Source: Chitinophagales bacterium (GTDB taxonomy: Bacteria > Bacteroidota > Bacteroidia > Chitinophagales > CAVYQA01). From it: 64,000 bases of DNA. Where the stretch lies: assembly GCA_963770495.1 (NCBI GenBank), contig CAVYQA010000015.1, positions 43,914 through 107,913 of the forward strand, given 5' to 3'. Of the stretch, positions 5,039-62,437 are shown piece after piece. The translations under genes and the position numbers were made by a program. The notes below the pieces were generated by a model. That model ran no database searches. It had not been told where the DNA came from and saw nothing but the letters and a program-made list of their open reading frames with translations. Numbering within the stretch: position 1 is the first letter of the stretch; every line of letters begins with the position of its first letter.

Positions 5039-5042
5039 AAGT

Positions 5043-6880: not shown

Positions 6881-6888
6881 TATCTTTG
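6881..6888 (+). promoter_or_regulatory. Bacteroidota sigma70 -7 box of the TA operon
   Basis: TATCTTTG matches TAnnTTTG, 4 nt before ATG 6893. Confidence 0.7.
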
Positions 6889-6892
6889 AAAA

Positions 6893-7135: not shown

Positions 7136-7439
7136 TGAAAACCTGCCTAAGCGACTAAAACAGGATTTTCCGGAATTTGAAATTTACACATTGCAAGATA
7201 ATGGATGGATAGGGAAATCGAATGGGGAATTGTTGCAATTAATGATTGAAAATAAGTTTGATGTTTTACTAACATTTGATAAAAACTTACAGTATCAACA
7301 AAATTTCGCAAAATATTCGGTTACTGTGCTTGTTATAAATGCGCCCGATAACAGTTATGAGGTTTTAAAAACACTTATACCTAAAATAAAACAAGTACTA
7401 TCACAACAACTTAAATCCGGACACATTGAGATAAAATAA
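7119..7439 (+). CDS. DUF5615 PIN-like toxin (VapC45-like)
   Basis: MRLLLDENLP start and VLLTFDKNL motif; 17-nt overlap with the DUF433 gene. Confidence 0.9.
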   Translation: MRLLLDENLPKRLKQDFPEFEIYTLQDNGWIGKSNGELLQLMIENKFDVLLTFDKNLQYQQNFAKYSVTVLVINAPDNSYEVLKTLIPKIKQVLSQQLKSGHIEIK

Positions 7440-7443
7440 ATCC

Positions 7444-8601
7444 TTATCCCTTCAACATAATCCTAAATGTTGTTCCTTTTCCGGGCGTAGATTCTTTTAC
7501 AAATATCTTTCCGTGGTGATAATTTTCAATAATACGCTTACTAAGTGTTAATCCCAATCCCCACCCGCGTTTTTTAGTGCTGTAACCGGGTTTGAAAACG
7601 GCATTAATATTGGCACGTGAAATTCCTTTGCCGGTGTCTGTAACATCAATAAAAACACGTTTATTTACACGCCCTATCTTCACATCAATGCTGCCTTTTC
7701 CTTCCGTGGCATCGAGTGCATTCTTCAATAAATTTTCTAGCACCCAATTAAAAAGGGTGATGTTAATGTGTGCAGTGATATTATTATCCGGGATTTGCTC
7801 AATATGAAATTCAACATTCTTCGATGCCCTTTTACGGATATAATCAACAGTTTTACTCACTTCTTCACCAATGTTCTCAACGGTGAGAGACGGGGCTGAG
7901 CCGATTTTGCTGAAGCGCTCTGCCACCAGTTCAAGCCGTGTGACATCTTTTTCCATTTCTTCAATCATTGGAATTTCGCTTTGTTGCACATGTGTTTTTA
8001 AATGTTCCACCCATCCGCTCATAGAAGAGAGAGGCGTGCCCAACTGGTGAGCAGTTTCTTTTGCCATACCCACCCAAACCCGATTTTGCTCGCTCCTGCG
8101 GGAGGCACTGAATGAATAATATGCCAATCCTATAAAAAGCATTATCACAGCTAACTGAACATAAGGAAAGATTTTGAGCTGGCTTAGCAGATAGGAGTCG
8201 CGGTAATAAATATAATTTTTAATGGTAGAAGTAATATCTATTTGAATTGGGGCGTGTTGTGATGCCATAATATTCAATTGCCGCCTTACATAGGTTGTAT
8301 CTTTAGCTGCACGCACTGAATCTATATTGCGATAGGCAACAATGTGCCCCTTATCATCGGTTAAGATGGCAGGAACGGTTTCATTATTTTTTATGATATC
8401 GAACATAAAACCGATATCGGTATTTTCCGATGAATTATTAAGTCGTTTAAAAACGTCTGCCCATAATTCTACTTTTTTCTTTTCATCAACTTCCAACCCT
8501 TTTGCAATATGATTGGTATAAAGCATTGAAGCGGCAACTATAACGGCGCCCGCTACAAGAAGCAGAATTTTCCAAAGCGATTTATTTTCGTAGATATTCA
8601 T
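7444..8601 (-). CDS. Membrane sensor histidine kinase (orphan)
   Basis: Two TM helices, H-box ETAHQLGTPLS, N-box ENLLKNALDA, G boxes DTGKGI and GWGLGL. Confidence 0.93.
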   Translation of the reverse strand: MNIYENKSLWKILLLVAGAVIVAASMLYTNHIAKGLEVDEKKKVELWADVFKRLNNSSENTDIGFMFDIIKNNETVPAILTDDKGHIVAYRNIDSVRAAKDTTYVRRQLNIMASQHAPIQIDITSTIKNYIYYRDSYLLSQLKIFPYVQLAVIMLFIGLAYYSFSASRRSEQNRVWVGMAKETAHQLGTPLSSMSGWVEHLKTHVQQSEIPMIEEMEKDVTRLELVAERFSKIGSAPSLTVENIGEEVSKTVDYIRKRASKNVEFHIEQIPDNNITAHINITLFNWVLENLLKNALDATEGKGSIDVKIGRVNKRVFIDVTDTGKGISRANINAVFKPGYSTKKRGWGLGLTLSKRIIENYHHGKIFVKESTPGKGTTFRIMLKG

Positions 8602-8633
8602 TCATTAATTTCAGCTAAAGATAAGACAGAACA

Positions 8634-11308
8634 TCAATTCGGAGGTGGTTGATTTTTATGAAACAGTTTATTTTTAAAATCCCGGAAGGCTTTTTTCTGT
8701 TTGTACCGTGTGCTGGTCGTATCCTGTTGCTGTGGCTGGGTTGTTGTTGTTGCAGGCGCAGTTGATTCTTTGCCAATAGTGTCGCTGAAATCAATAAATT
8801 GTTGCTGGTTATCCGGGGCTAGTCTTTGGCTTTATTTTGTTCCTGTTTTTGCTTGCTGAATTCATTATTTAATGCTGCCTTTACTTCTTTTTGTTGTTCT
8901 TTCAATCCTTCTTTTATTTTCTTTTTTACTGCCGTTTTATCATATTTTATATCCGGATTTGATGCCGGACCGGTCATAACAAGATAAAGATTGAGGGCAC
9001 CATTGACATCCTTTTCACTATTGACGGTGTTATAATTCGTTTTATGAAATTTATTTCCCAATAGCTCAAGCAAGTTAAGTTTTATGTTATAATTTACAAT
9101 ATTATCAAATGTTTGAGTGCCGCTAACATCAAGGTTAAGCGCGTTAGTATGAATGGTCATGTAGGGAATGTTAACCACGCGGTCTTTTATTTCTATATTA
9201 TTTTGCAATTCCGAGAAGTGAATATCCTTTAGCTCAGATAATTTTACAAAAGATGAAAGTGCATTCATAGGAGCATAATTAACCAGTTCACCGTTTTTAA
9301 TATCAACATCACTTATTACGTACAATTTACTATCATCAAATTTATAATTTACCCAAACGGCATGAACAAATAATTGCTTAGTGGTTAACTGCCCATGCAG
9401 ATTTTTATCTGTTATTTCATTTTGGTCAAAATTATCAAAAACATAAAACAGCCTGTTAATGTCTATATTATTGAGTTGTGAAGTGGTTTCAAGTATTATA
9501 TTGTTCAAATCGGCAGTGTTAAGTGTGCCATTACCCTGCACGTTCCCGTTTATGGCATCAAATGAAAAGGTGTTGAAGAAAATTTTATCAGGATGTATGT
9601 CAACAGTGCCGGTGAGATTTTTTGCATCGAATTTTTCATAGGCGAAAGCATTTATCTTAGCTGAAATAGTTCCCTCAAATGTATTTAGAAAGGAAGACAA
9701 AAAATGAATGGTATCATTTTTTTGTGATGAGGGATTTACCTCTAGGTCATTCCAATTTATATTATTTGCAGTGCAGGACAGATTAATCTCAACCCGTTGA
9801 GGTTTAGAGTTTATCCGGAAGGCATTAAAAATAGCTGAAACCGCATTTTTAATTGTTCCGTTAAATAATATATCCGTATTACCGGAAATTATCTTAAGAT
9901 TATTTACAGCCGTTTCATTATTGACTATCTTAAAATTTCCATCAATGTGATGAAGATGGTTGCGGTCGAAGACGATGGTTACATTCTTTATAATAATGTT
10001 ACCACCTGCATTAATACTGCTGATATCTGCTTTTTTAGATAGTTTGTCTAAGGGACCTTTGTAGTAGACATTGTCAAATTCCACGTTGCCATACATGTCT
10101 TTTACGAGGTTGAGATTAAAAAGCGGGTAAATATTTTTCAGGTTAACCATTGCATTAACCTGGATATCAACGTAAGGGCGATGAAAATTTTCAAGAATAA
10201 GGCTGCCTGTAATTGGTTGACCGTCTATGACTGCGTGCAATCCTTTTATTGTAAGCCTTGACTTGTGGAAATCAAGTGAAGAGTCTGTTACTAATTCGCC
10301 GCTGAATGAAATGTTCTTAAATTTTTTCCCGATATTATTATTTTTAAGCTCGCCCTTATTCACAACAAAATTTATGGATACACAAGGGTTAGAGGTTGAT
10401 GAACTATTACCTGTTACTTTACCCGACATGGTGAAATCGCCGTTGCTGTGATAGGCATAAATATATTTTGATTGATTCAAAGGCAGGAGGGAAGCTACTG
10501 AAACAAGGTTAAGGTTTTTGCCTAAAAACGACAAGTCAAGCGCCGTGTACTTGTTGAATGACTGAACAGTTCCAACTATATTAAACGCATTACCTTCTAT
10601 AATTGCAAGAGCGCGATTAATAATTAATTTTTCCGAAGAAGAATTATAATCCAATGAGGATTCTAATTTAACAGCCTTGTTGTTAAGGTAAGTTTCATTT
10701 CCAACAGAAATGTGATTGCAAAGGACATCAACATCAGTCGTAAATTGAAATTGGCTGCCGGTAATTGTTCCGGCAAGTGAGCCTTCTTTAGTATTAAATG
10801 CAATATAAATATGATTTTGAAGGTCGTTATAAGTTGTTGTGACATTGAATAATGTCAGTTTTTTAATATGGAAAGTGGTGCTGGTTTTATTTATTGTATC
10901 TGTTTTAAATATATCGAAATTACTTTTTCCGGTTTTGTCATAGATAAAATTCAATTCGCCATTTTTTACCGTAATACGGTGTATGGTATAATTCTTTTCA
11001 AATAAATTATAAATACTGAATAACAAATAAACGTCGTGTGCTTTAAGCAAATGAACACTGTCGTTATTAACTGAACCAGCGATGTCAACATCTTTAAAAG
11101 AAACCGTTGCATAAGGGAAATGTGAAAAAAGTGAAAAATCAATATCTCCGTTCACTTTTATTGGAACCGTTACCAGGGAATTGATTTCTGAAACTACTAT
11201 CTTTTTAATATTGGCGCCAATGATAATGCTTACAATTTCGCAGATAATTATCAAAGCGATTAGTATCAACCCCGTGATTTTTAAGAATTTCTGCAAGCGC
11301 TCCTTCAT
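8634..11308 (-). CDS. AsmA-family / AsmA-like C-terminal region protein
   Basis: N-terminal TM anchor, beta-taco-like repeats, SGTQTFDNIVNYNIKL...LYLVMTGPASNPDIKYD C-terminus. The track ORF stops at 8819, but another frame continues APDNQQQFIDFSD...KAFRDFKNKLFHK to 8634, so a missing base near 8820 is likely. Confidence 0.82.
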
Positions 11309-11635
11309 AACAGATTAAACGTTTCCACCCTGGTTTATTGCGATAAAAATAGGAAATGCGCAAAGAGGAAGATAAAAACCTGCAGGAATCATATAAACAA
11401 GTTGCATGACCGATTACTGTATTTCTTTATTATGCAGAAATTATTGAGGGGGAGCTTTAAAAGAGTTTTTTGAACATCTTAAAAAAGAATTGATACTCTG
11501 TAAAAAATTACAAACACATTTTCCATAATTTTATAAAAGAATTTAACGTAAACCCCTGATAATTAATGATAAGCCAGGAGTAATTTATATTAAAAAATAG
11601 TTTGTTTTTTCATTTCTAATTGATACTTATTTCAT

Positions 11636-11643
11636 TATATTTG
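11636..11643 (+). promoter_or_regulatory. -7 box, probable promoter of giant fibre gene 1 (about 190-nt leader)
   Basis: TATATTTG matches TAnnTTTG in the AT-rich divergent intergenic region. Confidence 0.5.
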
Positions 11644-11836
11644 CTAAAATCTAAAAAAAAGCACATAATAATTGATATACATTATTGTAATACTTAACTA
11701 AATATATTTACTTTTTTAATTTTTCGCAATTGATTGCAGATTAGTTCGAAACTTTTTTATAATTAAACAATAATAAAACATCAATAGAGATCAACATTTT
11801 CAATAATAATTTAATAATATTAAAACCCTTAATGTT

Positions 11837-14800
11837 ATGTTAAAATCACTACGCTTTTTTGCTGTTAGTCTATTGTTACTTGCGGCAAATGCTTTGCAAG
11901 CCCAAAATGTAGGCATAGGAACAGCCGCACCTGCCCAGAAATTGGAAATAGCGGGAACCAATAATACAATACGTATTAATGGACTTAAAACAGGGGGCAA
12001 TTATAATGGAACAGCCGCAACATCCTCCAACATTTTGTACGTAAATAATACAACAGGAGATGTGTATGCATTGCCGTCAGGCGGAGTTGGAGCGATACTT
12101 ACTATAAACGCTTCGGGTATTCCCACCTGGTCAACCGGAGCTACTTCGGCAACTGCCTGGCAGTTAACGGGTAATACAGGAATTGCTACTCCTGCTGCTC
12201 CGGCAACTTATGGAACATCAACCATTACTTCAGGTAAAAACTGGCTGGGCACTACGGATGGAAATGATGTAGTGTTTGGCACCGATAACATTGAACGGAT
12301 GCGTATAGGCGGCGGAACAGTAGCAACTGCCGGCGATGTAGGTATAGGCACATCTGCACCCGCTACAACATTACACGTTGTACAAATTGGTAATCACACC
12401 AGTGATTTCGGTACCTATAATGTAGCGGTTCAGATTGAAAATAAATCAGGTACAGAGCCGATACTTTATATCAATGGTTCAACAGCCAATAATCCTTTAG
12501 CCGGTATTATAGAACGTGCAAGTTCAACAGCATTTTATTCAGGGTTGAATAATAGTGCAAATTATAGAATAGCAGGTATAGCATCCATCACTTCGGGTGC
12601 CGTAACCACTGCTAAAGACGGTACTGCCGGTATAACCGTATTAGAATCCAATGGCAATGTGGGTCTTAATTATACAACACCTGCAAATGCATTAGATATA
12701 AGCGGTGCAGAAGCTATAGGTAGTTATGCCGGAACAGCCGCTCCTTCTAACGGATTAATTGTTTCGGGCAATGTCGGTATAGGCACCTCTTCACTATCAT
12801 CGGGTAGCACATTAAACGTGGTTCAAAATGGTAATGTAGCCAGTGATTTTGGCGGCTATAATACAGCGGTTGAGATTCAAAATACAGCAGGTACAGAACC
12901 TGTCCTTTATATCAATGGTTCAACAGCTAATAATCCCTTAGCAGGTATTGTGCAACGTGGCAGCTCAACAGCGTTTTATGAAGGGTTGAATAATAATGCA
13001 AATTTTAGAATAGCAGGAATAACAGCAATCTCTCAAACTGGTTTCGGCAATGCTAAAGACGGCAGTGCAGGAATAACAGTATTAGAATCCAATGGCAATG
13101 TAGGTATTGGAATAATAGCACCTGCCCAGGCACTGCAGGTTGTAGGTAGTGTTCAGTTTTCACAGGCATTAATGCCTAATGGGGCTGCCGGTACAGCGGG
13201 CAATGTTCTGCTATCAGGTGGAGCCGGTACATTCCCAACATGGCTTGCTAATGGCAGCGCCAATCAAGTTCTTACCATTAGTGGCGGCGTTCCCACATGG
13301 GTGACACCAACTGCTACATCAGCCACTGCATGGCAGTTAACAGGTAATGCAATTGCCTATACTTTTAGCGCCTCGCCTACAAACTATTTGGGTACTACCG
13401 CTTCAAACGGTGCAGGTTTTCAATTTGGAGTTGGCGGTGCTAATGCCGGTCGTGTAGAATCCACAAACGGAAATACTGCTTTAGGTTATCAGACTTTAAA
13501 TGCTACCACCGGCACTTATAACGTTGCTATGGGTTATCAAACTTCAAATAGTACTATAACAGGACAGTATAACACAGCGTTAGGGTATCAATCATATTTG
13601 GGACCGGGAACTACTTCGGGATCGTATAATATAGCGATTGGTTACCAGGCGCTCAATACGACAGTGTGGGGTACAAATGTCAATACAGCGTCTAATAATA
13701 TTGCTATTGGAAACCAATCATTAACAAGTATAACTACGTCACATGATGAAATAGGTATAGGAAATAGTGCCGGCGCTGCTATTATAACCGGTACTCAGAA
13801 TATAGCAATTGGCTATGCCGCAATGTATAATACCGGTGGAGGTGATAATAACAATACTGCTATTGGGTATTTAGCCTTAGAAGGGTTCGGAGCAAATGTA
13901 AATGACAATACAGCCATTGGCACTAATGCCTTACAGAATGGAGCATCAAGCGACAACGTAGCTATAGGATATAATTCTATGGAAGAAAACTTTCTTACCA
14001 GTGTAGGTTTTAATGTCGCTGTTGGTTCCGGAACACTTCAAGTAGGAAACACTGTTTCTAACTCTACGGCTATCGGGTATTATTCATTACATACTGCTAC
14101 CGCAGGTAACAATACCGCTGTCGGATATTCTTCATTATCCTCTAACCTGAGCGGCTCCAGTAACGTAGCTATGGGGTATGATGTTCTTTTATCAAACACT
14201 TCTGGCAGTAATAATACGGCATTAGGTTACCAGGCGGGTTACACGGCAACACCTGCTAACGCAAATGTCACAGGCAGTAATAATACTTTTATTGGTTATA
14301 ATGCAGGTCCCGGAACAGCCACACAGTTATCCAATGCGACAGCTCTTGGTAACGGCGCATTAGCTCCTATTAGCAATTCAATAACTCTAGGTAACTCTGC
14401 GGCTACAAGTCTTTATATACCGGGTTATCAAACAGCAGGCGCATTATTATATACCACAGCTGCAACCGGGCTTGTTGGATCGACCGGTGTTGGTACAAGC
14501 GGGCAGGTATTAGAATCAACAGGCGGAGGCGCTCCGACATGGACAACCTTAACTACATCAGCAACTGCATGGCAGCTAACAGGTAACGAGCGGAGTAACT
14601 TATGCAGCTAATTTTATAGGTACGGTAAGCGGCACTGACCAGGCACTTAAGTTTGAAGTAAACGGTTCAACAGCAGGGCGAATTGAGGATATAAATACAG
14701 GTAATAATGCTTACGGCAATACTTCATTAGGTTACCTGGCATTAAGTGTGCCGTCTACAGGATTCTCAAATGTAGCAATAGGTAAAGAAGCTCTTCGTAA

Positions 14801-17800
14801 CAATGCGGCTGACTATAATGTGGCAGTTGGCGATAGTGCGTTGGTTAGTAATACTACAGGTACCTATAACATAGGAATAGGAAATAATGCATTAGCAACA
14901 AACATATCAGGTTTATTGAATACTGCTGTCGGATATTATGCATTAAATGCCAATAACAGCGGTAGTTACAATACAGCACTCGGAAATAGTGCATTATTGG
15001 GGAATACTTCAGGTGGCGACAATGTTGCAGTAGGGTCGTTTGCATTATATTCAAACCAAACAGGTACTGCCAATGTCGCCATTGGATATGAAGCTTTGGA
15101 AGCCAGCACATCAACCAACCCCAGTACTGCCGTCGGTTATTTTGCTTTAGGTCATAATACAACAGGTGGTCTCAATACAGCGGTAGGATACGATGCTTTA
15201 GGTGTAGGAAACACAACAGGTGTTGACGATGATGCTTTCGGTTATTTTACGGGGGCAAGGAATAATGGCAACTATAATGTGGCGCTTGGCGATGCGGCTC
15301 TCCGCACTCCTACAGGCACTTCAAGTAACAACGTTGCTGTTGGGTACAGTGCCTTAACCGCTTCAAATGCAAGTGTTGGTAATAACACAGCCATAGGATA
15401 CGAATCTAGTTACAGCACTACAACCGGTTCAAACAATACAGCATTAGGCTACCAGTCATTATATACTAATGCCGCTTCCGCCTCAAACGTTGCAATAGGA
15501 GCTAATGCATTATATAATAATACCGTCAGCAAGAATACAGCAGTGGGCGATAGTGCACTTGCTTACAATTCAACCGGCACACTTAACACAGCTTTAGGTT
15601 ATAATGCCACTGTATCGGCAAATAATTTATCCAATGCAACAGCAATCGGCGCGAATGCAATAGCTCCTGTAAGCAACTCAGTAACATTAGGTAATTCGGC
15701 AGTTGCAAGCCTTTATTTGCCGGGATATACTTCAGCGGGTGCATTATTATATACTTCCGCTGCAAGCGGGCTTGTTCAATCAACAGGTGTTGGTACAAGC
15801 GGGCAGGTATTACAGTCAAATGGTACAGGCGTTCCCACATGGGTAACACCTGCTGCGGCATCGGCTACAGCTTGGGCTTTAACAGGTAATACAGGAACAA
15901 CTTACGGTACTAACTATATTGGCACTAATGATCTTCAAGGTTTAATGTTTAAAGTTGACGGCACAATAGCCGGGCGTATTGAAGAGTTAAAAGCCAGTCA
16001 GAATCTCAATGCCAATACGGCAATTGGTGATTCAGCATTAATATCCAACACCACAGGTGGATGGAATACAGCAGTAGGTTACCAGGCTTTAGGTGACAAT
16101 ACCCAGGGATACTATAATACAGGAATAGGATGGGGAGCAAATGCTTTAAACACAACGGGTTCTTCCAATACTGCAGTTGGACTCGACGCTTTATATTCAA
16201 ACAACACAGGCGGATACAATACAGCCCTTGGGTATGCTAGTATGGGGTTAAATACCACTGGTAATAACAATATTGCTATTGGAGCTTGGGCATTGGATGA
16301 TAACACCACAGGTTCTGGCAACATTGCCATTGGGTATGAAGCTTTGGTGGCAAACACCACAACTAATCCCAGTACTGCCATTGGTTACTTTGCTATAGGG
16401 CACAACACTACTGGCGGTCCCAATACCGCATTAGGTTATGAAGCTTTAGATCTGAATGTTACAGGTACTAACGAGGATGCTTTTGGTTACCTGGCAGGTT
16501 TTAGGAATACCGGCAGCTTTAATGTTGCGCTTGGAGATATGACTCTACGCACTCCTTCAGGCACTTCAAGTAACAACGTTGCTGTTGGTTACAGTGCTTT
16601 AACCGCTTCAAATGCCAGTGTTGGTAACAACACAGCCATAGGTTACGAATCCGGTTATACCACTTCAACCGGTTCAAACAATACCGCCTTAGGCTACCTG
16701 TCGTTATATACTAATACTATTCACGCCTCAAATGTAGCAATAGGAGCAAATGCGCTTTTAGATAACAACGTCAGTCAAAATACAGCAGTGGGTGATAGCG
16801 CTTTAGCAACTAACGTTAGCGGCACTGGTAATACAGCGTTGGGTTATCAGGCAGGAGCTGTTACAACCGGTTCTTTTAACCAATTTGAAGGGTACCAGGC
16901 GGGAAGTAATAATTCAACCGGCGCTAACAATACTTTTATCGGGTATAGCACAGGCACTACAAATACTACAGGCTCCAATAATACACTTTTGGGCAGTGCC
17001 GCCAACATAAATGCAGCCGGGTTAACTAATGCAACAGCAATAGGAGCAGGTGCTACAGCTCTTGCAACCAACTCAATAACGTTGGGCAATTCGGCAGTTT
17101 CAAACCTTTATTTGCCCGGATATCCTACTGTTGGAGAAATGTTCTATACCTCCAATGGAAACGGGCTTGTTTCACCTCTTAATATAGGGACAACCGGACA
17201 AGTATTGACAGTATCAGGCGGTGTTCCCACATGGGTAACACCCACTGCAACATCAGCTACTGCATGGCAGCTAACAGGTAATGCTGTTGCCTATTCTTTT
17301 AGTGCTACACCTGCTACCTATTTGGGTACTACCTCCGGAAACGGTGCGGGTTTTCAATTTGGAGTTGGCGGCAATAACGCCGGGCGTGTTGAATCCACTA
17401 ACGCAAATGCTGCATTGGGTTATCAGACATTAAATGCAAATATTACAGGTACCGGTAATGCAGCAATCGGTTATCAGGCATTACTTGCCAATACGACAGG
17501 CACGAACAATGTTTCTATGGGTTACCAGGCATTAAAAACAAGCACAACAGCTGCGTCAAATGTGGCAGTAGGTAAATTTGCGTTAGAACTTTCAACAGTT
17601 AGTCAAAACGTGGCAATAGGCGATAGCGCATTATCACTTAATACGTCAGGAGTTCGCAATACCGCAGTAGGTTACCAGGCGGGAACAAATAATACAACAG
17701 GTACTGATAACGTATCAATAGGGTGGGAAGCAGGTTATTATCCTGGTTCAACCAGTAATAACACAGCAATAGATAATATTGGTATCGGAACTTATGCAAT

Positions 17801-20800
17801 GTCAGGTTATGGTGGTTCATTCATTGGCACACCCGGTTCTCATAATATAGGTATTGGTGAAGAAGCAACGGATGATCTCTCAACAGGTAGTAATAACATT
17901 GGTATTGGTTATGAGTCTTTATTACTTGAAGCCACCGGAAGTTATAATATTGCTCTTGGAATTGGAGTAATGCTTCAGGATCAATCTTCCAGCAATAATA
18001 TAGGTATAGGTTATAACGTATTAGAGCAGGGTGGCGGTGGAGGAAATAACATTGCCATTGGAAACAACAGCATGGCACTTAACCTTAGTGGTAGTAATAG
18101 CGTGGCGATTGGTACAAATGCAATACAAAATGGAAATGGCTCTCTGGCTAACACTGCAGTAGGTTATCAGGCTTTACAAAATAATGGCAGTAACTGGGCA
18201 CCGGGGGCTGATGGTGATTATAATGTAGCTGTAGGTTATGACGCATTATTGAATGCACATGGAGCAGCTCAAAACGTTGCTGTTGGTTATAACGCTGCTA
18301 TAAATACAAATAGCTTTACAGTTAATGGCAGTGCTGTGAATAACGTTGCAATTGGTTATAATGCTTTTAGCACTAATACTACTGGTAGCAATAACGTAGC
18401 AATTGGTTCCAATGCCAATGTAGCTTCTGCTGCGTTAACCAATGCAACAGTAATAGGCTACAATGCCACAGCGCCTGTAAGCAATTCAGTAACTTTGGGT
18501 AGTTCAGCAGCTACGAGTTTATATATACCAGGATATAATACGGCAGGTGCTTTATTATACACTTCAGCAGGAACCGGGTTGGTAGCATCAACGGGAGTTG
18601 GCACAAGCGGACAGGTATTAGAATCAACAGGTGGAGGCGCTCCAACATGGACAACCCTAACAACATCAGCTACTGCATGGCAATTAACAGGTAATTCAGG
18701 AACAACACCCGGTACTAATTTTATAGGCACTACCGATGCCAAAGCGCTTGAATTTAAAGTGGATGGAAAACAAGCAGGGTGGATTGACTATAACGGTAAC
18801 GAGAATACCTATTTTGGCTACCAGGCAGGTAATTTATCCGCCAGCGGCGGCAATGTCGCTATCGGATACGATGCGCTTCTCAGCTCCGGCGGAACTTCAA
18901 ATATCGGCATCGGAAATTCGACTCTTATTTTTAACACCAGCGGCAGCAACAATATCGCTATCGGCGGCGGTGTGCTTAATAACAACTCCTCCGGGTCTCA
19001 AAATGTGGGCGTCGGAGCAGGTACACTCTTTAATACCGGCAGCGGCTCTTACAATACCGCTGTTGGAGGTAATGCACTTAATGGCAGCGGCGGATCGTAC
19101 AACACCGCCCTTGGATTCAATGCCATGTCGCAGAACGGACCAAGTTTTAGCACTGCTATTGGAAATGAAGCAGGAGCCAATAACTCCGGTAACCAGAATG
19201 TGTTTGTAGGCGACAGTGCAGGGTATAATAATATTAATGCATCAGGAATAACCTTTGTGGGGTTTGCAGCAGGAACAAACAACTCGAGTGGAACAAATAA
19301 CACTGCCCTTGGGTATAATACTCTTAACACTAATTCAAGCGGAAGTAACATTACCGCTTTAGGTTATGGCGCCAACGTAAGTTCAGACGGCTTAACCAAT
19401 GCAACGATAATAGGCGCTAATGCAACAGCGATTGCAAGTAACTCAATAACATTAGGTAATTCTGCAGCTACAAGCCTTTATATACCCGGTTACCAAACAG
19501 CGGGTGCATTATTATATACTTCAGCTGCAACCGGACTGGTTGCATCGACTACAGCCGGTACAAGCGGGCAGGTATTAGAATCAACCGGCGGCGGTGCACC
19601 AACATGGACAACCCTAACCACATCAGCCACTGCATGGCAGCTCACCGGCAACGCGGTTGCCTATAGCCCTAGTGCTTCACCTACTAACTATTTGGGTACA
19701 ACTATTTCCGGTGGTACTGGTTTTCAATTTGGAGTTAGCGGCAGTAATGCTGGCCGAATTGAGGGTGGCGCTACTCTTAATACCGCACTGGGTTATTTGT
19801 CATTAAATCCCAGCACCACAGGCACTAAAAATTCGGCTTTAGGAGCCAGGTCCTTAAATGCTAATACCACCGGTTCTGAAAACTCGGCTGTTGGTAATGG
19901 TTCATTAACTTCCAACACTTCCGGCAGCAACAATTCGGCTTTAGGATTTGCCGCTTTGGCTGATAATACTTCGGGATCTTCTAATACAGGCATAGGTGTT
20001 GATGCGTTAAACAATAATACCTTGGGCGGTAACAATGCAGCTTTAGGATATGAGGCGTTAACCGCTAACACCACCGGCAATAATAATGTTGCAGTTGGTG
20101 TTCAGGCAATGTATAGCAATACCACCGGCGCCAGTAACGTAGCTGTTGGACAAAATGCCTTATATTCCGATATCGTTCCTTCTTCTAACGGCAGTCAAAA
20201 TACAGCCATTGGTACTTATTCATTATATGGTGCCATAAGCGGTGCTGCACGGAATACAGCTGTCGGAGATTCAGCTTTGGTCAGTAACACGACCGGCGCA
20301 CAAAATACGGCTTTAGGTTACAATGCCAATGTAAGTTCAGGCGCTTTAACCAATGCCACAGCTATAGGCGCAAATGCATCTGTTGCACAAAGCAACTCTT
20401 TAATTTTGGGTTCAATAAACGGAGTAAACGGTGCGACAGCCAATACCAGTGTCGGTATTGGTACAAATACACCTAACAGCACTCTGCATGTCAATGGCTC
20501 AATGTCTGTTGCTGTAACTAATATTACTCCCGCTCTATCTCCTTATTCAGCAGGTTCGGGTGATTATATTGTTGAAGGCGATTGCAGCACCGGCAATATT
20601 ACAATAAATCTTCCCGATGCCACTACTATGAAGGGCAGGATATATTATATCGTCCGTTACGATGCAACCTTTAATTCGGCTAATACACTTACTGTAGGTA
20701 CTACAAATAACACCTCCAGTCAGAATAATATTGGTCCCTATGGCGCGTCTATCTCACTTTCTGACGAATATGAACAGGAGTATATTGCAAGTGACGGAAA

Positions 20801-20837
20801 TAACTGGCTTATTCTTGGCAGCAGTAAAATGCAATAA
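11837..20837 (+). CDS. Giant (about 2,999 aa) secreted beta-roll / tail-fibre-like repeat protein 1
   Basis: Track ORFs 11837-14611 and 14748-20837 join into one frame when one base at 14588 is removed (TGN-SGVTYAANFIGT, as in the sister repeat TGNSGTTPGTNFIGT). Sec signal then QNVGIGT; dozens of about 14-aa NxAxGxxAL repeats; seven AW(Q/A)LTGN linkers; C-terminal TINLPDA...GRIYYI...SDGNNW domain. Confidence 0.85.
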
Positions 20838-20845
20838 TAATGGAG

Positions 20846-20885
20846 CAGTAACCCGGTTTGTTTAAAGAACCGGGCTACTGTTTTA
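20846..20885 (+). terminator. Intrinsic terminator after giant gene 1
   Basis: CAGTAACCCGGTT / AACCGGGCTACTG stem (one mismatch) followed by a T-run. Confidence 0.8.
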
Positions 20886-21129
20886 AAGCTTTATATACCA
20901 CTTCGACATTAGAATTTTAATATTTTGCATGCAATACCATGCCCTGTATTTAAAATTACTTAATTATCAGTTCTATTTTTTTAGCAAACTTTATTGGAGA
21001 TAAATTGTAAATAATTACCTGATTGTAACAAATTTTATCTGCTATAAGCTCATTCATTAGCTTGCAAGAATCATATAAAAAAATAGGTGCAAAATGACCA
21101 AAGTCATATTTTGGTTTATACAACACCTC

Positions 21130-21137
21130 TAATTTTG
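21130..21137 (+). promoter_or_regulatory. -7 box upstream of tnaA
   Basis: TAATTTTG, 80 nt upstream of the tnaA ATG. Confidence 0.55.
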
Positions 21138-21158
21138 CCGACAAAAATTTAGATAATT

Positions 21159-21227
21159 ATGGCGAAAGCAAGGAAAAGGTTATGGGCAGTTTTAAAAAAC
21201 GCAGATAGAATTATTTATGGAATTTAA
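21159..21227 (+). other. Possible Trp-containing leader peptide overlapping the tnaA start
   Basis: ATG 21159 gives [22 protein letters not shown], downstream of the -7 box and overlapping the tnaA ATG by 11 nt. Confidence 0.3.
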
Positions 21228-22597
21228 AACTATAATAGAGCCATTTCGCATTAAGTCTGTTGAGCCATTGCAGATGAGTACGGAGGAACAACGAATAAAG
21301 TTTTTATCAGATGCTCATTACAATCCGTTTCTTCTAAAAAGCGAAGAGGTGATTATTGATTTGCTTACCGACAGACGGCACATCAGCCATGAGTACTAAC
21401 CAGTGGGCTGCTATGATGCAAGGTGATGAATCTTATGCAGGCGCCAAAAGCTGGAAACGGTTTGAAAAGGCGGTTTATGAATTTACCGGTATGCCTTATA
21501 TATTACCTACCCACCAGGGACGTGCGGCAGAGCGCATTCTTTACAGTCACCTGGGCGGGAAAGGGAAATATTTTATAAGTAATACCCATTTCGATACAAC
21601 ACGGGCGAATATTGAATACAGCGGGGCAACAGCCATTGATATACCGGTAAGCGCTGCATACGATTTTTCATCCGATTACCCGTTTAAAGGCGACCTCGAT
21701 GTCATTCAACTCGAGCAACTTATTAAAAAATTGGATGCCAAAAATATTGCCGGTGTCATTCTCACGGTTACCAACAACAGTGGCGGGGGGCAACCTGCAA
21801 GTATGCGCAATGCCCGCGAAGTTGCCGCCATGTGCAAACTGCATGGTATTCGATTTATAATTGATGCGTGTCGTATTGCGGAGAATGGCTATTTTATTCA
21901 TTTGCGTGAAGAGGGCTATGTCGATAAAACCATTAAGCAAATTGTGTTTGAGATGTTTTCACTGGCTGATGCCTGTATTATGAGCGCCAAGAAAGATGCG
22001 TTGGTTAATATGGGTGGCTTTTTGGCGTTGCGCGATAAAAAAACAGCCGATGCCTGCATTCAACTCTTAATTATAACAGAAGGGTATACAACCTATGGAG
22101 GTCTTTCTGGTCGTGATATGGAAGCCATTGCTGTGGGATTAAGTGAAGGACAGGACATGGATTATTTACATTATCGTATAAAAAGTACACAATATCTTGG
22201 TGAAAATATAAGACGCAAAGGGATTCCCATTATTTACCCGGTGGGTGGTCACGCTGTTTATGTAGATGCCAAAGCTCTTTATCCGCACATACCTGTCGAG
22301 CAATATCCCGGGCAGGCTTTGGTTTGCGAATTATATCGCATTGGCGGAATACGATGTGTGGAGATTGGTTCGGTAATGTTCGGCAAATATGATGGTAATG
22401 GAAAACTCATTCCGGCGCCGATGGAATTGGTACGGCTGGCTATCCCCCGCCGCACCTACACCCAAAGCCATATAGATTACGTGGTCGAGGTTTTTGACGA
22501 GATAATTAAAACCAAACATAATACAACAGGGCTGCGGATTATCCGGGAACCTGAATTCCTTCGTCATTTTACAGCACATTTTGAGAAAAATGTTTAG
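21217..22597 (+). CDS. tnaA: Tryptophanase (one apparent +1 indel at 21375)
   Basis: EPFRIKSVE start; removing A21375 restores DLLTDSGTSAMS; THQGRAAE; PLP lysine in SAKKD. FDTT and LRHFTA residues match tryptophanase rather than tyrosine phenol-lyase (FTTT, LRFFTA). 459 aa when joined. Confidence 0.9.
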
Positions 22598-57628: not shown

Positions 57629-59026
57629 TCACCAGCTTTGTTTCGGCAATATTTTCCCCCCTCCTATAAATTTAAACGGTCTGTCGCCACGGCGGAAATT
57701 CTCAAATTCCGAGTTAAAAATTCTTGTGATGGCATAATCGAGGCAATCGCTTAAATGCCCCCATTCCTGGTAGGAGATTCCCGTTTTGGTGTCTTTTATA
57801 GTTACTTTCAATTTGGTATCATCTTCGGCCTGTTTTACATTTTGCAAATCGAGGATGGTGTTTTTGCAATTTTCGCCAATGACAATTTCAATGCCACCGG
57901 TTTGGTTACAAAATATATTATTGATGAATTGTCCGCGCATGAACACCGGAGGGTTGGATGGCGGCACTCTCAACTGTGGTTTGTAATTGCTTAAGCCGGT
58001 TTGAATCAAACGGTAAAGGTCGTAGCCGCTTTCTGTTCTCACAGTTTGTTTCTGGCTGGTGGCATCGCCGGTAATTAATAACCCGCTTTGGTGGTATGGA
58101 TACCTCCTGGAAAATTCGCTTATCATATCTCTTATGGTATTTTTAGGCGGTTTCATACATAACTCATCAAACTGCACGGCTTTTTTGCCATATACCTGCC
58201 ACAGCGATGCGGCAAAATAAGGATGCACATTTTCATCAAAGCTTAACCAGATGGGTAACTTCGGATTGTAAACAATGGGCTTAACATGTTTTTCAATATT
58301 GAATTCTTTATAAAACTCCACGCCGGTTTTTAATAGTAAATCCCAATCGCCTTCAACAAATACCTGGTATTCATAGCGGGGCATGTTCTTTAAATTCTGT
58401 TTGTATTTTTCGGGTATGTAAGGATTATCGGTAATTTTTGCGGGAATATATGACCACCGTTTATTCAATTCCTTCTTTTTCCAGAGGTCATAAAATTTTT
58501 CTTTCACCCAGTTTTGCGAAGGGTTGCAGGTGCAGATGACCAGCGGCGGCGGGTCGGAATCTATAATATGCGACCCCGCGCGCTCAATGGCTTTGTAAAA
58601 CGATTTTTCCTGCAGCTCATTTACTTCCTCCAGCAAAAAACCGTTCACTTCCAGTCCGCGCCAGCGGTTCAACTCTTTATCGCGGGCATAATTTTCTCCG
58701 AAGAAAATAAGTTGTGAGCCGTTCTTAAATGTAACCGTATTGGTATTCCGGTTAAACGACACCATAAAACTCTTAGGGCAGATTTTAAAAAACGAAGGTA
58801 TGGTGGTTTGTTTTAATTTCTGCAAATCCGTTCGCACCACTGCCCATTTGCTCTGTTTATACACTTTGCACAAAAAAAGTAGCACACCCAGTGCGCCAAA
58901 TGTTTTTCCGCCGCGTATGGCTCCCCCGTATAAAATAATATCTTTTTCTCCGCTCGTTGCCTGCCTCAGCAGTTCCCTTTGCGGCGGAAAGGGTTTATAA
59001 AGTGGCTTATTTTCTACTGATTCCAA
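57629..59026 (-). CDS. terL: Phage terminase large subunit, intact and orphan
   Basis: Walker A GGAIRGGKT, Walker B FLLEE, coupling motif CTCNP, TDNPY, VEGDW; nuclease acidic residues in SFDEN, TGDA and HLSDCLDY; 465 aa, TTG start. Confidence 0.9.
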   Translation of the reverse strand: MESVENKPLYKPFPPQRELLRQATSGEKDIILYGGAIRGGKTFGALGVLLFLCKVYKQSKWAVVRTDLQKLKQTTIPSFFKICPKSFMVSFNRNTNTVTFKNGSQLIFFGENYARDKELNRWRGLEVNGFLLEEVNELQEKSFYKAIERAGSHIIDSDPPPLVICTCNPSQNWVKEKFYDLWKKKELNKRWSYIPAKITDNPYIPEKYKQNLKNMPRYEYQVFVEGDWDLLLKTGVEFYKEFNIEKHVKPIVYNPKLPIWLSFDENVHPYFAASLWQVYGKKAVQFDELCMKPPKNTIRDMISEFSRRYPYHQSGLLITGDATSQKQTVRTESGYDLYRLIQTGLSNYKPQLRVPPSNPPVFMRGQFINNIFCNQTGGIEIVIGENCKNTILDLQNVKQAEDDTKLKVTIKDTKTGISYQEWGHLSDCLDYAITRIFNSEFENFRRGDRPFKFIGGGKILPKQSW

Positions 59027-59051
59027 AATTTTAACGTTAGCTATCCGGCGT

Positions 59052-59105
59052 CAAAATTATTGGAGGAATAAACGCCTTATCACAAGTTGGGACAAGAAGT
59101 TTTTG
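59052..59105 (-). promoter_or_regulatory. terL promoter: 22-bp box + N24 + -7 box
   Basis: Minus strand CAAAAACTTCTTGTCCCAACTT (59105-59084), 24 nt, TAATTTTG (59059-59052). Confidence 0.75.
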
Positions 59106-59199
59106 GGCGCGGGTGTAGGTAATGGTTTCAAGGTGTGAATGAATATTCAAGAGGAGTAGGCTATTTCTATGGCAAAAATGTACCAATCAAAGCGCAAAA

Positions 59200-59247
59200 A
59201 TGCTAACTATAGTATGTAGCACATGTTGCATACTATAAATAGCTTTG
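59200..59247 (+). promoter_or_regulatory. C-protein double operator and -7 box of the C-R operon
   Basis: ATGCTA-ACTA-TAGTAT (59200-59215) and ATACTA-TAAA-TAGCTT (59230-59245); the second overlaps the -7 box TAGCTTTG (59240-59247). Confidence 0.75.
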
Positions 59248-59260
59248 TTGTTACTAATTT

Positions 59261-59482
59261 ATGATGAACAAAAAGAATATATTAATTGCATTTGGTGAAA
59301 AGGTTCGTGAACTGCGAAAGCAAAAAGGCTTATCGCAAGAGGAACTCTCATTCAAGGCCGACTTACATAGAACTTATATTGGGATGATTGAACGAGCTGA
59401 AAAAAATATTACTCTAACGAACATAGAAAAAATTGCTAATGCATTAGATGTTCACGTTTCAGAACTTCTAAAAAGTAAATGA
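59261..59482 (+). CDS. R-M controller (C) protein, XRE-type HTH
   Basis: FGEKVRELRKQKGLSQEELSFKADLHRTYIGMIERAEKNITL; ATGA overlap with the endonuclease gene; palindromic operators upstream. Confidence 0.88.
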   Translation: MMNKKNILIAFGEKVRELRKQKGLSQEELSFKADLHRTYIGMIERAEKNITLTNIEKIANALDVHVSELLKSK

Positions 59483-60468
59483 CTATGTTACAGACACAAA
59501 GAATGCCATCACTTCCAAAACTTTTAGAGCGAAAAATATATAAGACTGGACAAACAAGAGGAGCTGATGATGATGTGATTTTTCAGAACAGGGTTGCAAG
59601 AAACAGTACAGTACTAATTCCCTACCCCCAGTTTGAAGTTTGGAAACAGGCTCCTGATAATAACGGTATTTATGAAAACAATTTTTTAGTTCTTATTAAG
59701 CCGGAAGATTATTTTAATAACAAAAATATTAAGGAAGAGTTAGTTGAGAAAGGGTTAAGGATTGGAAAGAATGTCTTGTTGTTTTATGAAACGCGTGAGC
59801 AATGGAACGATTTCAACCCAAATAATAAGAGGCTCAAATATGCTGTTTCAAGAACTTCACCACTAAAAGGACATTATGTTGCCCGAGTACCTTCGACTAC
59901 AGCAGAAGGGGATAGAAAAATTCTAAGAGGTTTTACAACGAGCGGAATGAAAGGAGCCGGAATACGAGTTTATGAATACGCAAGCCAGAGTATTAACGAT
60001 CAATGCCGAATACAACTTGAATACGTCTTTTGGTGCTGTGTTGATGCAAAAGAAGTTGTTGAACAACAGGGAATGACAAAAGAAAATATTGAAATAAGAA
60101 AAAAAACTAATATAGAAAAAGCAAAAGAACTAAAACTCGATGATGAAAAAATTCTAAAACATGTTCGGATTTTAAGCGAATTTGGCCATGCAATTTGCCC
60201 GCTTTGCTTAAAACCTTTGTCAGCAAATGGTTTTTTCAATCGCTTAGAACAAGCTGAAGGAAGGGATGTACCTGACCTGACAGTAACCCAATTGAATTTA
60301 TTTCACATCCAGGAATTAAGAATGGGGGAGTTCAATCATCGTCCATATAATTTGGGTTGGGGACACCATCATTGTAATACTGTTACTAAGGATTCAGGAA
60401 TAATTGAAACCTTAAAATGGATGGACGAAATAATTCAGACTAACAAAAAAATGGGTTACAAGTTTTAA
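59479..60468 (+). CDS. Type II restriction endonuclease, HNH-type (BstXI-like by recollection)
   Basis: RKIYKTGQTRG...QNRVARNSTVLIPY N-terminus; CPLC and LFHIQEL...HRPYNLGWGHHHCN beta-beta-alpha-metal motif; between a C gene and a methyltransferase. The family name is unverified. Confidence 0.75.
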   Translation: MTMLQTQRMPSLPKLLERKIYKTGQTRGADDDVIFQNRVARNSTVLIPYPQFEVWKQAPDNNGIYENNFLVLIKPEDYFNNKNIKEELVEKGLRIGKNVLLFYETREQWNDFNPNNKRLKYAVSRTSPLKGHYVARVPSTTAEGDRKILRGFTTSGMKGAGIRVYEYASQSINDQCRIQLEYVFWCCVDAKEVVEQQGMTKENIEIRKKTNIEKAKELKLDDEKILKHVRILSEFGHAICPLCLKPLSANGFFNRLEQAEGRDVPDLTVTQLNLFHIQELRMGEFNHRPYNLGWGHHHCNTVTKDSGIIETLKWMDEIIQTNKKMGYKF

Positions 60469-61583
60469 CCCAGATCAAAGAGTGTATTTGATAGAGAAGT
60501 CATTTGTTTTTTTGTCACTTTCATTATATCGTGCTTTTTCTTTAGTGTTGTAAAGTTTTTAGCAGAATAGTTTTCCAATCTTGTTTTTATTGACTTTACC
60601 CATTTTTCGTCCAATTCAATAGAAATTGTTTTTCTGCCAGTATTCAAAGCAGCAATTGCTGTACTTCCAGAACCAGCAAAACAATCAAGAATGATATCGC
60701 CTTCATAAGTTGCGCTTATAATTGAGTGCTCCAACATATCTATAGGCTTTTCAGCAGGATGTTTTCCATCATAAGGTCTTACGGAACAGAAATTCCAAAC
60801 ATCAGTAAACTCAACAGATGAATTAACATCAAACGGCCTTATTACATCTTCATAAGACGGCATTTGTTTTACTAAGCCTATCGACAAAATCGCTTTACAA
60901 ATTTTTTTGTATTGATCACGACTCGGTATATTTCTACCTGCCTCCCAATTATGGACAGAACCACCATGATTCACTTTTCCGAAAGCACCTACCATTTCAG
61001 TAAGTTGATGACCGGCCAAACCAGAAGCCAATCTAACAGACTTTAAAAAATTACCAAATGATGAATTATTTAAGTTCCCTTTATATGCTGGTTCAGCAAA
61101 AATGATTCTTTCAGAATGGTCATACCATTGTCGTAATGATTCTTTTTTCATTTTTTGTTTCCATCCATCAAAACCAGGATCATTTGGTTTTGTCCAAACA
61201 ATATGGGACAGAATATTAAATTGCTTCATAAGCAACACTTCAATTCTCGCCGCCATTGCCGAGGAACAATAAACATAAATTGACCCATTTGGCTGTAGGA
61301 TACGATACCATTCTTTTGTAAAGTCTTCCATCCACATTAAAAAATCATCATCACTTTCAAAAGCTGTATCGTTCTTAATGTTTTTCTTTTTAGTTGTGTG
61401 GTAAGGAGGATCTGTAAGAATAAGAGAAATACTATGATCTGGAATGTATTTTAGTAATTCCAAAGAATCTCCAGAAATGAGTAATGAATCTGAACTTTCA
61501 AACTCTAACTCACCATTGAATTTTGACCTAATTTTTTTGAATGAAGCTTCTCTATTTTTCAAATATTCATCTAAAGTTGTCAT
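60465..61583 (-). CDS. Beta-class N6-A/N4-C DNA methyltransferase with internal HTH-like insert
   Basis: Motif IV TDPPY precedes HPAEKP and motif I DCFAGSGST; convergent with the endonuclease (4-nt overlap). Confidence 0.92.
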   Translation of the reverse strand: MTTLDEYLKNREASFKKIRSKFNGELEFESSDSLLISGDSLELLKYIPDHSISLILTDPPYHTTKKKNIKNDTAFESDDDFLMWMEDFTKEWYRILQPNGSIYVYCSSAMAARIEVLLMKQFNILSHIVWTKPNDPGFDGWKQKMKKESLRQWYDHSERIIFAEPAYKGNLNNSSFGNFLKSVRLASGLAGHQLTEMVGAFGKVNHGGSVHNWEAGRNIPSRDQYKKICKAILSIGLVKQMPSYEDVIRPFDVNSSVEFTDVWNFCSVRPYDGKHPAEKPIDMLEHSIISATYEGDIILDCFAGSGSTAIAALNTGRKTISIELDEKWVKSIKTRLENYSAKNFTTLKKKHDIMKVTKKQMTSLSNTLFDLG

Positions 61584-61590
61584 TTTTCAC

Positions 61591-61615
61591 TTGCTAATTA
61601 TAGTATGCAAATCTA
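61591..61615 (-). promoter_or_regulatory. C-box over the methyltransferase transcription start, plus -7 box
   Basis: TTGCTA-ATTA-TAGTAT (61591-61606) matches the C-R operators; TAGATTTG -7 box on the minus strand at 61615-61608. Confidence 0.72.
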
Positions 61616-61689
61616 TAAACTCATTTAATATTAAACAACACTTTTGCTAAAAAATTATTCACCTTATATTCATTATAATATAACCCGCC

Positions 61690-61710
61690 GTGCGGAGCCA
61701 CACTCCGCAC
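61690..61710. repeat. GC-rich hairpin in the M-terS intergenic region
   Basis: GTGCGGAG-CCACA-CTCCGCAC, perfect 8-bp stem. Confidence 0.6.
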
Positions 61711-61853
61711 TCATATAGCAGCATGCACCCCAAATAAACCTAAAATAATAATATATAATAAATTAATTATCAACCTCACTTTTTCATTCTTGACAAGAAC
61801 TGACAAGAAAAAAATGGGGTAAAAAAACCACAAGGTTTAGTAAGCACGTAGCT

Positions 61854-61964
61854 CTCCTCCTGTTTTTAGGAGGAGGCTGCGCAATGAGCGGAGGTGAGGA
61901 GGTAAATAATAAAAACCTCCCGGCAACCCGCAAAGCTCTGTCCCCTCCTAAAAACAGGAGGGGA
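61854..61964. repeat. Inverted REP doublet (REPIN-like)
   Basis: CTCCTCCT-GTTTTT-AGGAGGAG (61854-61875) and its inverted partner TCCCCTCCT-AAAAAC-AGGAGGGGA (61941-61964). Confidence 0.75.
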
Positions 61965-61978
61965 GTTAAAAGGCGCAG

Positions 61979-62032
61979 CAAAAACTTCCTGTCCCAACTT
62001 CTTAAACCGCTCTCACTCCCGCTCTAATTTTG
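61979..62032 (+). promoter_or_regulatory. terS promoter: 22-bp box + N24 + -7 box
   Basis: CAAAAACTTCCTGTCCCAACTT (61979-62000), 24 nt, TAATTTTG (62025-62032); 21/22 identical to the terL box with the same spacing. Confidence 0.75.
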
Positions 62033-62053: not shown

Positions 62054-62437
62054 ATGAATCAAAATGACAATCAAACGCACAAGCTCACTGATGAGCAATT
62101 TGTAGCCATCTACACAGAAAACGGCGGACTGCCTTCTAAAACCGCCAAAGCCATAGAGGCAAAGTATAAAATAAAATTTTCGCGCCAGGCGGTGCGCGAG
62201 CGCGCCAAAAAATTTCCCGATATAGTATTTGAATGCCGCGATGAATTAGTTGAAATGGCAGAAGACAATTTAAGGCATTTGCTTAACTGTGACGACCTGG
62301 AAGTAAAGCGCAAAACCACTATTTATGTATTAAACACACTCGGCAGGGCAAGCGGCTATGGCAAAACCACCGTTACCCATGAACCCGCCAAACCCGAAGA
62401 GTATTTTGAAATTGACGGTAAAAAATTTATTTTTTAA
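62054..62437 (+). CDS. Probable terminase small subunit-like protein
   Basis: 127 aa; N-terminal HTH-like segment (KFSRQAVRERAKK), helical middle (ELVEMAEDNLRHLL...TIYVLNTLGRASGY), beta-strand tail (YFEIDGKKFIF); shares its promoter with terL. The TerS identity is an inference. Confidence 0.55.
   Translation: MNQNDNQTHKLTDEQFVAIYTENGGLPSKTAKAIEAKYKIKFSRQAVRERAKKFPDIVFECRDELVEMAEDNLRHLLNCDDLEVKRKTTIYVLNTLGRASGYGKTTVTHEPAKPEEYFEIDGKKFIF

Follow-up and report, generated by a model that had tools for sequence, protein, structure and literature searches.

Invertons have locus-specific repeats and usually a recombinase gene nearby, and inversion gives a promoter or coding end a new partner. Sigma-A promoters of Bacteroidota are described in PMC9723704 (citing Bayley 2000, Vingadassalom 2005, and Chen 2007) as having a TTTG at −33 and a TAnnTTTG at −7, and in flavobacteria the TAnnTTTG box spans −12 to −5 (PMC9723704). 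Here, we analyze a 64,000-nt stretch of the genome of a Chitinophagales bacterium (hereafter the window; C15:43914-107913 of an own-genome assembly of 4.05 Mb, where contig C15 is 164 kb) in which a 22-nt inverted repeat encloses a restriction-modification (R-M) cassette with C, R, and M genes, and in which the terminase gene terL and a small-terminase-like (terS-like) gene, p127, lie just outside the two arms. An earlier note had read the repeat either as a site shared by one activator at the two terminase genes or as recombination sites that let a 2.9-kb segment flip. We consider it highly probable that the arms are two ordinary, outward-facing copies of a dispersed promoter module, which here flank an inserted and self-regulated R-M cassette.

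A 52-bp module repeated across the genome

The inverted 22-mers do flank the C-R-M cassette, as the earlier note had said, and agree at 21 of 22 positions. Two matches to the 22-mer occur in the window versus 0.01 expected, and none of 100 shuffles yielded two. The elements of the two arms are as follows.

59084-59105, minus strand: left box, the upstream promoter element of terL, CAAAAACTTCTTGTCCCAACTT; the 22-mer is at predicted positions ∼−58 to −37
59052-59059, minus strand: left −7 box, TAATTTTG, its TA exactly 26 nt after TGTCCCAAC; predicted start near 59047
61979-62000, plus strand: right box, the upstream promoter element of the terS-like gene, CAAAAACTTCCTGTCCCAACTT
62025-62032, plus strand: right −7 box, TAATTTTG; predicted start near 62037, with the ATG at 62054

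In a repeat search, the pair grows to 54-nt arms (59052-59105 and 61979-62032; 74% complementary and 2873 nt apart), both of which terminate in TAATTTTG. The same sequence recurs throughout the genome. The 21-mer, with three or fewer mismatches, has 105 copies versus 2 for a reversed control, and the core TGTCCCAAC has 121 copies in 4.05 Mb. A TAnnTTTG-type box, most commonly TAATTTTG, is located downstream of 108 of the 121 cores, at a distance of exactly 26 nt in 106 copies and exactly 25 nt in 2. The module is laid out as AAAACTTYYTGTCCCAACTT, 24 nt, and TAATTTTG, for a total of 52 nt; the 24-nt stretch has a weaker tTctCAcCGCaTT followed by ∼11 variable nt. Across 102 distinct copies, information content is limited to the stretch from −9 to +43, counted from TGTCCCAAC; outside these 52 nt the profile shows near-zero conservation and no terminal inverted repeats. 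Conservation bounded in this manner has the shape of a promoter and not that of a transposable repeat.

Membership in this family accounts for the resemblance between the two arms. Arm-to-arm identity is 40/54 versus a family mean of 36/54, the arms rank only 23rd and 17th of 105 as partners of one another, and the spacers of the two window modules agree at 11/24 positions versus a family mean of 10.5. Each arm has ∼20 closer relatives elsewhere in the genome, and the closest relatives of the right arm are promoters of other p127 paralogues. Going by these comparisons, the 54-nt, 74% repeat is fully explained by the family consensus, and an inverted repeat arises only because terL and the terS-like gene diverge at this locus. 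An apparent second inverted pair of boxes, at C7:10264-11495, was dropped as support for inversions; it stems from a fold-back at the start of that contig. The fold-back is an inverted duplication of 10.8 kb (1-10845 versus 10914-21764, 97.9% identity, 67 gaps, and a 68-nt spacer), and C7:1-21764 is probably an assembly artefact.

The geometry of the module is consistent with a promoter in which the box takes the place of an element. The earlier note had located the box where the −33 element and upstream region belong, and this is borne out by the fixed register and by the lack of a TTG at spacings of 16-21 from the −7 box, the canonical −33 place, in all 98 box promoters. The −33 signal upstream of all TAnnTTTG sites genome-wide is too diluted to be informative. 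By the flavobacterial placement of the −7 box at −12 to −5, transcription is inferred to start near 59047 on the minus strand and near 62037 on the plus strand, with the 20-bp box at ∼−56 to −37 and predicted 5′ untranslated regions (UTRs) of ∼17-21 nt at terL and p127.

We suggest that the left module drives terL leftward and the right module drives the terS-like gene rightward. The −7 box would act as a normal Bacteroidota sigma-A element in promoters that are missing the canonical −33 TTG, and the box, held in rigid register, most likely replaces −33 as the dock of a protein that recruits RNA polymerase. Candidates for this protein are a dedicated activator or region 4 of one of three sigma-A-like paralogues. 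Three sigma genes with sigma-70 region 3 are present in the genome, and relatives have one to four. One of the three is at C15:36015-36227, ∼8 kb beyond the left end of the window.

The genes behind the module are diverse. The idea of a shared upstream promoter site was correct in kind, in that the box keeps a fixed register to the −7 box, and too narrow in scope, as the module precedes ∼108 transcription units and not two. These include gyrA, sufB, dut, and the pyruvate kinase gene as well as prophage genes, so the name "terminase box" used in the earlier note is a misnomer. Other single genes identified downstream with Pfam encode an H+-pyrophosphatase, a MeaB/B12-binding mutase, Hsp20, a MacB-type permease, a SpoU methylase, a fatty-acid desaturase, PcrB, an IS110 transposase, and a large serine recombinase. 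Several secreted proteins with type IX secretion system (T9SS) tails are among the first substantial downstream open reading frames (ORFs). At least 18 full-length p127 paralogues are among the module-driven genes, nearly all behind a box promoter. A further, 13-member family, negative in Pfam and PHROG, has 11-13 copies of 640-880 nt in which homology starts exactly at the box promoter; its proteins are 140-290 aa in length, with the patterns MLLxxLLKI...VSYH..NKKARVFHGNCRMP... and MLLIHLLKILF...VSYH..NKKARVFHGNCRMPFDVEFA.... Examples are at:

C15:17548-19547, outside the window
C7:127901-128536
C30:286269-286909

Judged by copy number, register, and gene contexts, the module serves this organism as a promoter type of general use, and it appears to be an undescribed, lineage-specific control element. 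A literature search with the motif as TGTCCCAAC or GTTGGGACA returned only papers on p53 sites and primers.

On the prophage-like contig C24 (69.6 kb), the module or close variants precede genes for a head-tail adaptor-like protein, a head maturation protease, and two terS-like proteins, among others. This contig also carries terL and seven to eight box or box-like promoters, ∼four times the genome-wide density. The 526-aa large serine recombinase gene at C2:331788-333365 has a box-like promoter with the −7 box TAGTTTTA. No box was found within 1.5 kb upstream of 47 tRNA/tmRNA genes or anywhere on contig C4, which has the sole assembled 16S gene, ruling out that the box marks a strong promoter of the rRNA/tRNA type.

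Some of the predicted transcripts begin with a distinctive leader. In 34 box promoters, (T)GTTCTTTGAA(A) is within ∼10 nt of the predicted start. The motif matches boxA, GYTCTTTAANA, at 10 of 11 positions, the consensus being gamma-proteobacterial, and it recurs in the organism's own 16S leader. It is followed by repetitive extragenic palindrome (REP)-like hairpins, a GACAACAAAACGACAAGAA motif, and a conserved ∼65-nt hairpin (AAAGTTCCTGACA ... loop ATTGATTAACAACAAACTAAATAT ... TGTCAGGAACTTT) whose stem covaries, for example between UA and CG. Composite leaders precede the genes for sufB, H+-pyrophosphatase, pyruvate kinase, and the MacB permease, among others; examples of the 34 loci are listed below.

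L026:21-300 (G000:C5:21823-22542)
L036
L037
L039

Searches of Rfam with 20 leader loci and the whole window matched a single tRNA, within the window, and no other family, and a literature search for GTTCTTTGA with boxA found nothing relevant. The composite leaders may be a Nus-dependent leader class.

The box is conserved where its surroundings are not. Copies of the 13-member family are 72-86% identical in DNA with a near-invariant box, and p127 paralogues of 22-38% protein identity have essentially identical boxes. In 22 homologous units compared across species, the box (90% identity) and the −7 box (96%) stand out from the spacer between them (47%) and from the upstream sequence (26%); at the 11 box positions not set by the search pattern, the figure is ∼81%, a rough correction. 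We take this level of conservation as evidence of function in the box, beyond mere copying. Its distribution is narrow. No copy of the module was found in 40 genomes of the same order or, save for one chance match, in 185,579 GTDB species representatives. It is carried by 61 metagenome contigs, mostly from one JGI sample series (Ga0302xxx) and with matching classes of downstream genes, and by relatives reached via flanking genes (L067 and L132); relatives with the module were found only through metagenome contigs.

The cassette and the terminase genes

The two arms enclose genes for C, a BstXI-family R, and an N6/N4 methyltransferase. Features between the boxes are as follows.

59196-61625: AT-rich inserted C-R-M cassette, GC 0.29-0.38 versus 0.41-0.47 in the flanks
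59195-59250: C-box palindrome upstream of the C gene, ACTATAGTATG ... CATACTATAAAT, the cassette's own regulatory inverted repeat
59261-59482, plus strand: C protein gene (HTH_3, 8e-18)
59479-60468, plus strand: R gene, BstXI-family endonuclease (RE_BstXI, 1.1e-86)
60465-61583, minus strand: M, N6/N4 methyltransferase gene (N6_N4_Mtase, 1.6e-40)
61593-61610: related C-box copy just upstream of M
61849-61968: two REP-like hairpins, CTCCTCCTGTTTTTAGGAGGAG and CCCCTCCTAAAAACAGGAGGGG, directly upstream of the right box

Endonucleases of this family are common across Bacteroidota, and the closest homolog of the one in the window, 86% identical, is encoded in sequence L133. There, at L133:5716-8130, C(+), R(+), and M(−) are arranged as in the window and reside inside a defence island with Gabija-like (OLD/UvrD) and HigBA systems. 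The DNA of window positions 59196-61500 is 73.6% identical to that of L133, beginning at the C-box palindrome, and the L133 cassette has near-identical C-boxes upstream of both C and M. No box was found in the L133 sequence with the homologous cassette, which assigns the boxes to the host genes rather than to the mobile unit. Base composition and homology indicate that the cassette is a foreign, portable, and self-regulated unit.

Hairpins of the type at 61849-61968 also precede a box on contig C25. More generally, the 60 nt upstream fold at −12 kcal/mol or lower in 45% of box promoters versus 18% of other TAnnTTTG sites, and recurrent REP-like hairpin types near box promoters include GTCCCCTTTAGGGGA (54 strand-counts) and CCTCCTAAAAACAGGAGG (15). 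A role as insulating terminators is possible for the hairpins upstream of boxes. Another R-M-like cluster, unrelated to the cassette, at C6:73579-77630 (a 296-aa N4/N6 methyltransferase followed by ORFs of 112 aa and 251 aa) is just upstream of a box-driven p127 paralogue, in a relative orientation like that in the window. Its location beside p127 could be a coincidence or a preferred landing zone.

The terminase genes are members of expanded families. Besides the copy in the window, the genome has five full-length terL paralogues (58-92% identity) and one partial copy. Paralogues of terL and p127 are scattered among ordinary chromosomal genes, and their usual order is box promoter, p127, terL.

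57629-59026, minus strand: terL, 465 aa, TTG start (Pfam Terminase_3, 2.1e-9; PHROG 2, 6.4e-30)
62054-62437, plus strand: p127, terS-like, 127 aa
C17:221350-223550, C30:68670-70770, C21:43950-45900, C24, and C20: loci of terL and terS-like paralogues in the same genome
L067:7873-9816, L132:1092-3061, and L131:7696-9419: corresponding loci in relatives

Searches of p127 against Pfam, PHROG, and PDB profiles gave no significant match, and those with Foldseek gave none that was significant, with the best in BFVD at E ∼0.1 and the G20c small terminase at E = 2.1. An AlphaFold model built with 11 paralogues (pLDDT 76) predicts a three-helix N-terminal helix-turn-helix (HTH) domain, two long helices, and a C-terminal beta-hairpin, which resembles the layout of terS. 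The putative terS-like identity of p127 follows from gene position; a p127-type gene is directly upstream of terL in C17, C30, C21, L067, and L132.

A flanking DUF5723 gene led to relatives L067 and L068, in which DUF5723 is 60% and terL 76% identical to those in the window. On a single strand, these have genes for a TonB-dependent receptor and DUF4249, a box promoter, a p127 ortholog, an 80-nt spacer with a hairpin, terL, and DUF5723. The syntenic locus has one box and no R-M genes. The L067 ortholog of p127 is 131 aa in length and 41% identical, has the C-terminal ...PE.YFEI.GK.F.F motif in common, and has a box 21 nt from its ATG, as in the window. Relative to this order, the window is the exception: the p127 unit is reversed, terL has its own module, the cassette is between divergent promoters, and two small genes, for an outer membrane protein (OMP) and a YgaP-like protein, have been gained. 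We suggest that the terS-like unit was turned around, terL acquired a box promoter, and the C-R-M cassette landed between the resulting divergent promoters. An inversion between the boxes never alters the relative orientation of terL and p127, and therefore cannot have made the arrangement in the window. The occurrence of a syntenic pair between DUF4249 and DUF5723 in a relative with a terL that is only 76% identical suggests that orphan terminase pairs are kept long-term without prophages.

Several points weigh against reading the arms as ordinary promoter copies around an insertion. Promoter activity is deduced from sequence alone. The reader of the box has candidates only, the three sigma-A-like genes and the HTH-bearing p127 family, with none tied to it. 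The order of inversion, promoter gain by terL, and R-M insertion is drawn from the locus of one relative, in which p127 and its presumed ortholog are 41% identical. The search pattern itself guarantees part of the cross-species conservation of the box, for which ∼81% is only a rough correction. Finally, a rare inverted subpopulation may exist, since assemblies lose minor variants.

Competing explanations of the repeat

The module could be primarily a selfish, mobile repeat that carries a promoter, in the manner of miniature inverted-repeat transposable elements (MITEs) or Correia elements, in which case its presence at terL and p127 would be incidental. This explanation is compatible with promoter function, and it would fit a high copy number within one lineage (given the near-complete absence from other genomes noted above), the association with multi-copy gene families in which homology begins exactly at the box, and 5′ remnants of p127 joined to unrelated sequence. 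It does not fit the lack of terminal inverted repeats or of conservation beyond 52 nt, or the persistence of copies at homologous genes across species. The strict 26-nt register, with high conservation of the box and −7 box and low conservation of the spacer, is the pattern of a functional promoter. We regard a primarily selfish repeat as unlikely.

Another possibility concerns which protein reads the box. Members of the expanded terS-like HTH family could themselves bind it, so that phage-derived relatives of terS would have been exapted as transcription activators that wire ∼108 units together. Such a regulon may include prophage structural genes, dispersed orphan terS/terL pairs, and housekeeping operons with boxA-plus-hairpin leaders. 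We hold this to be distinctly unlikely.

Alternatively, the repeat could be the relic of a local inverted duplication, produced by rearrangement or by insertion of the cassette, with arms of recent common origin and no function. That the locus is rearranged relative to L067 and that the similarity of the arms runs over 54 nt are in keeping with a relic. But the arms, at their ranks of 23 and 17 among 105 and with spacers no closer than average (11/24 versus 10.5), are no more alike than random members of the family, and the right arm groups with promoters of other p127 paralogues. The L067 ortholog of p127 already has a box at 21 nt from its ATG, and across species the box is kept while its flanks are not. 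A relic is thus very improbable.

Under the remaining alternative raised by the earlier note, a site-specific recombinase would act on the boxes as crossover sites and flip the 2.9-kb C-R-M segment in the style of an inverton. Bacteroidota are known for invertible regions, and the 21/22 inverted repeat does enclose a segment. The genome also has two serine recombinases, with PF00239 matches only on C2 and C19, and six tyrosine-recombinase (PF00589) matches, only on C7, C21, C1, C2, and C19. However, none of these matches is on the 164-kb contig C15, where searches with PF00239 and PF00589 turned up neither a serine nor a tyrosine recombinase. The boxes do not define a specific segment, as their sequence is present ∼105 times in register with a −7 box, and the homologous cassette of L133 carries no boxes. 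With 22 bp, the repeat is also short for RecA-dependent inversion.

Assemblies show the reference orientation. Contigs from Logan, found by exact-protein look-up in two independent metagenome runs, cover both sides of the cassette. L044 and L045 are colinear with window positions 58569-61411 and 58529-60472, at 99.96% and 100% identity, respectively, and cross the left box in the same configuration as the reference. L042 and L043 pick up at 61945, which is 34 nt inside the right box, and run through p127; the contig break is within a REP-like hairpin, further copies of which are present in the genome. At both junctions, then, the genome and the two metagenome assemblies show only the reference orientation, with 58529-61411 colinear on the left and 34 nt of reference interior on the right, bearing in mind that assemblies drop minor variants. 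Nor would a flip have an evident consequence. Because the cassette carries its own C-box-controlled promoters, inversion would be functionally neutral; it leaves these promoters and both −7 boxes as they were and would not switch a phenotype. Recombination sites for a 2.9-kb flip are not borne out by two arms that are members of a family of ∼108 and not nearest relatives, on a contig without a recombinase gene, with reference junctions only. The invertible-segment explanation is unsupported and hardly credible, and the locus is very probably not a DNA flip switch.

As improbable is that the box is a pac-like site recognized by terS-like proteins, a packaging start for a dispersed terminase or gene transfer agent (GTA)-like system instead of a transcriptional element: the box adjoins nearly every terS-like paralogue, pac phages often have the pac site in or near terS, and p127 has a modelled N-terminal HTH, but the invariant 26-nt link to the −7 box is a promoter trait, as is the way the box points toward the gene it precedes, most copies precede genes unconnected with packaging, and the terS identity of p127 is unproven (best fold E ∼0.1; G20c terS E = 2.1).

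Comparison with known systems

With two ordinary promoter modules flanking an inserted cassette, the inverted repeat needs no special explanation, and there is no evidence for a phase-variable R-M system or a terminase-specific regulator. An uncultured soil/peat clade of Bacteroidota appears to run ∼108 genes from a rigid 52-bp promoter in which a 20-bp box replaces −33. If confirmed, the module would be a strong-promoter and regulon signature for annotating metagenome-assembled genomes of this clade, a way to look for a new activator or a new sigma specificity within a phylum with poorly mapped transcription signals, and a marker for the spread of multi-copy terS-like/terL pairs in prophage-free chromosomes.

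The module resembles Bacteroidota sigma-A promoters in its perfect TAATTTTG −7 box and short predicted 5′ UTRs of ∼17-21 nt. It differs from them in having no −33 TTG in 98 copies and an invariant 20-bp box at ∼−56 to −37. Promoters with activators or UP elements (the UP element of Escherichia coli rrnB P1 at −40 to −60, class II CRP promoters, and promoters under phage late and middle activators, such as those with the T4 MotA box, which replaces −35) are likewise similar in having a conserved element, at a fixed distance, that is upstream of or replaces a −35-type contact at many promoters, including those of prophage structural genes. Unlike these, the box is unrelated in sequence and contains GC instead of being A/T-rich like the UP element, and the targets of the module mix housekeeping genes with mobile and phage genes.

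The locus shares with the invertible promoters and shufflons of Bacteroides (Mpi-/Tsr-type recombinases) only that short inverted repeats enclose a segment. Its repeats, in contrast to those of invertons, are two of ∼108 promoter copies, its contig is without a recombinase gene, and a flip would be functionally neutral. The cassette is comparable to C-controlled type II R-M systems (PvuII, AhdI, and Esp1396I), with C (HTH_3), R, and M genes, C-boxes upstream of C, and a related site at M. This likeness concerns the cargo and not the flanking repeats, and the R gene of the window is of the BstXI family. Lastly, dispersed repeats that bear promoters (Correia elements of Neisseria, REP and bacterial interspersed mosaic elements [BIMEs], and MITEs) are similar in that ∼100 copies per genome are able to give promoter activity, but the module has neither terminal inverted repeats nor a wider body, and its conservation is exactly promoter-shaped.

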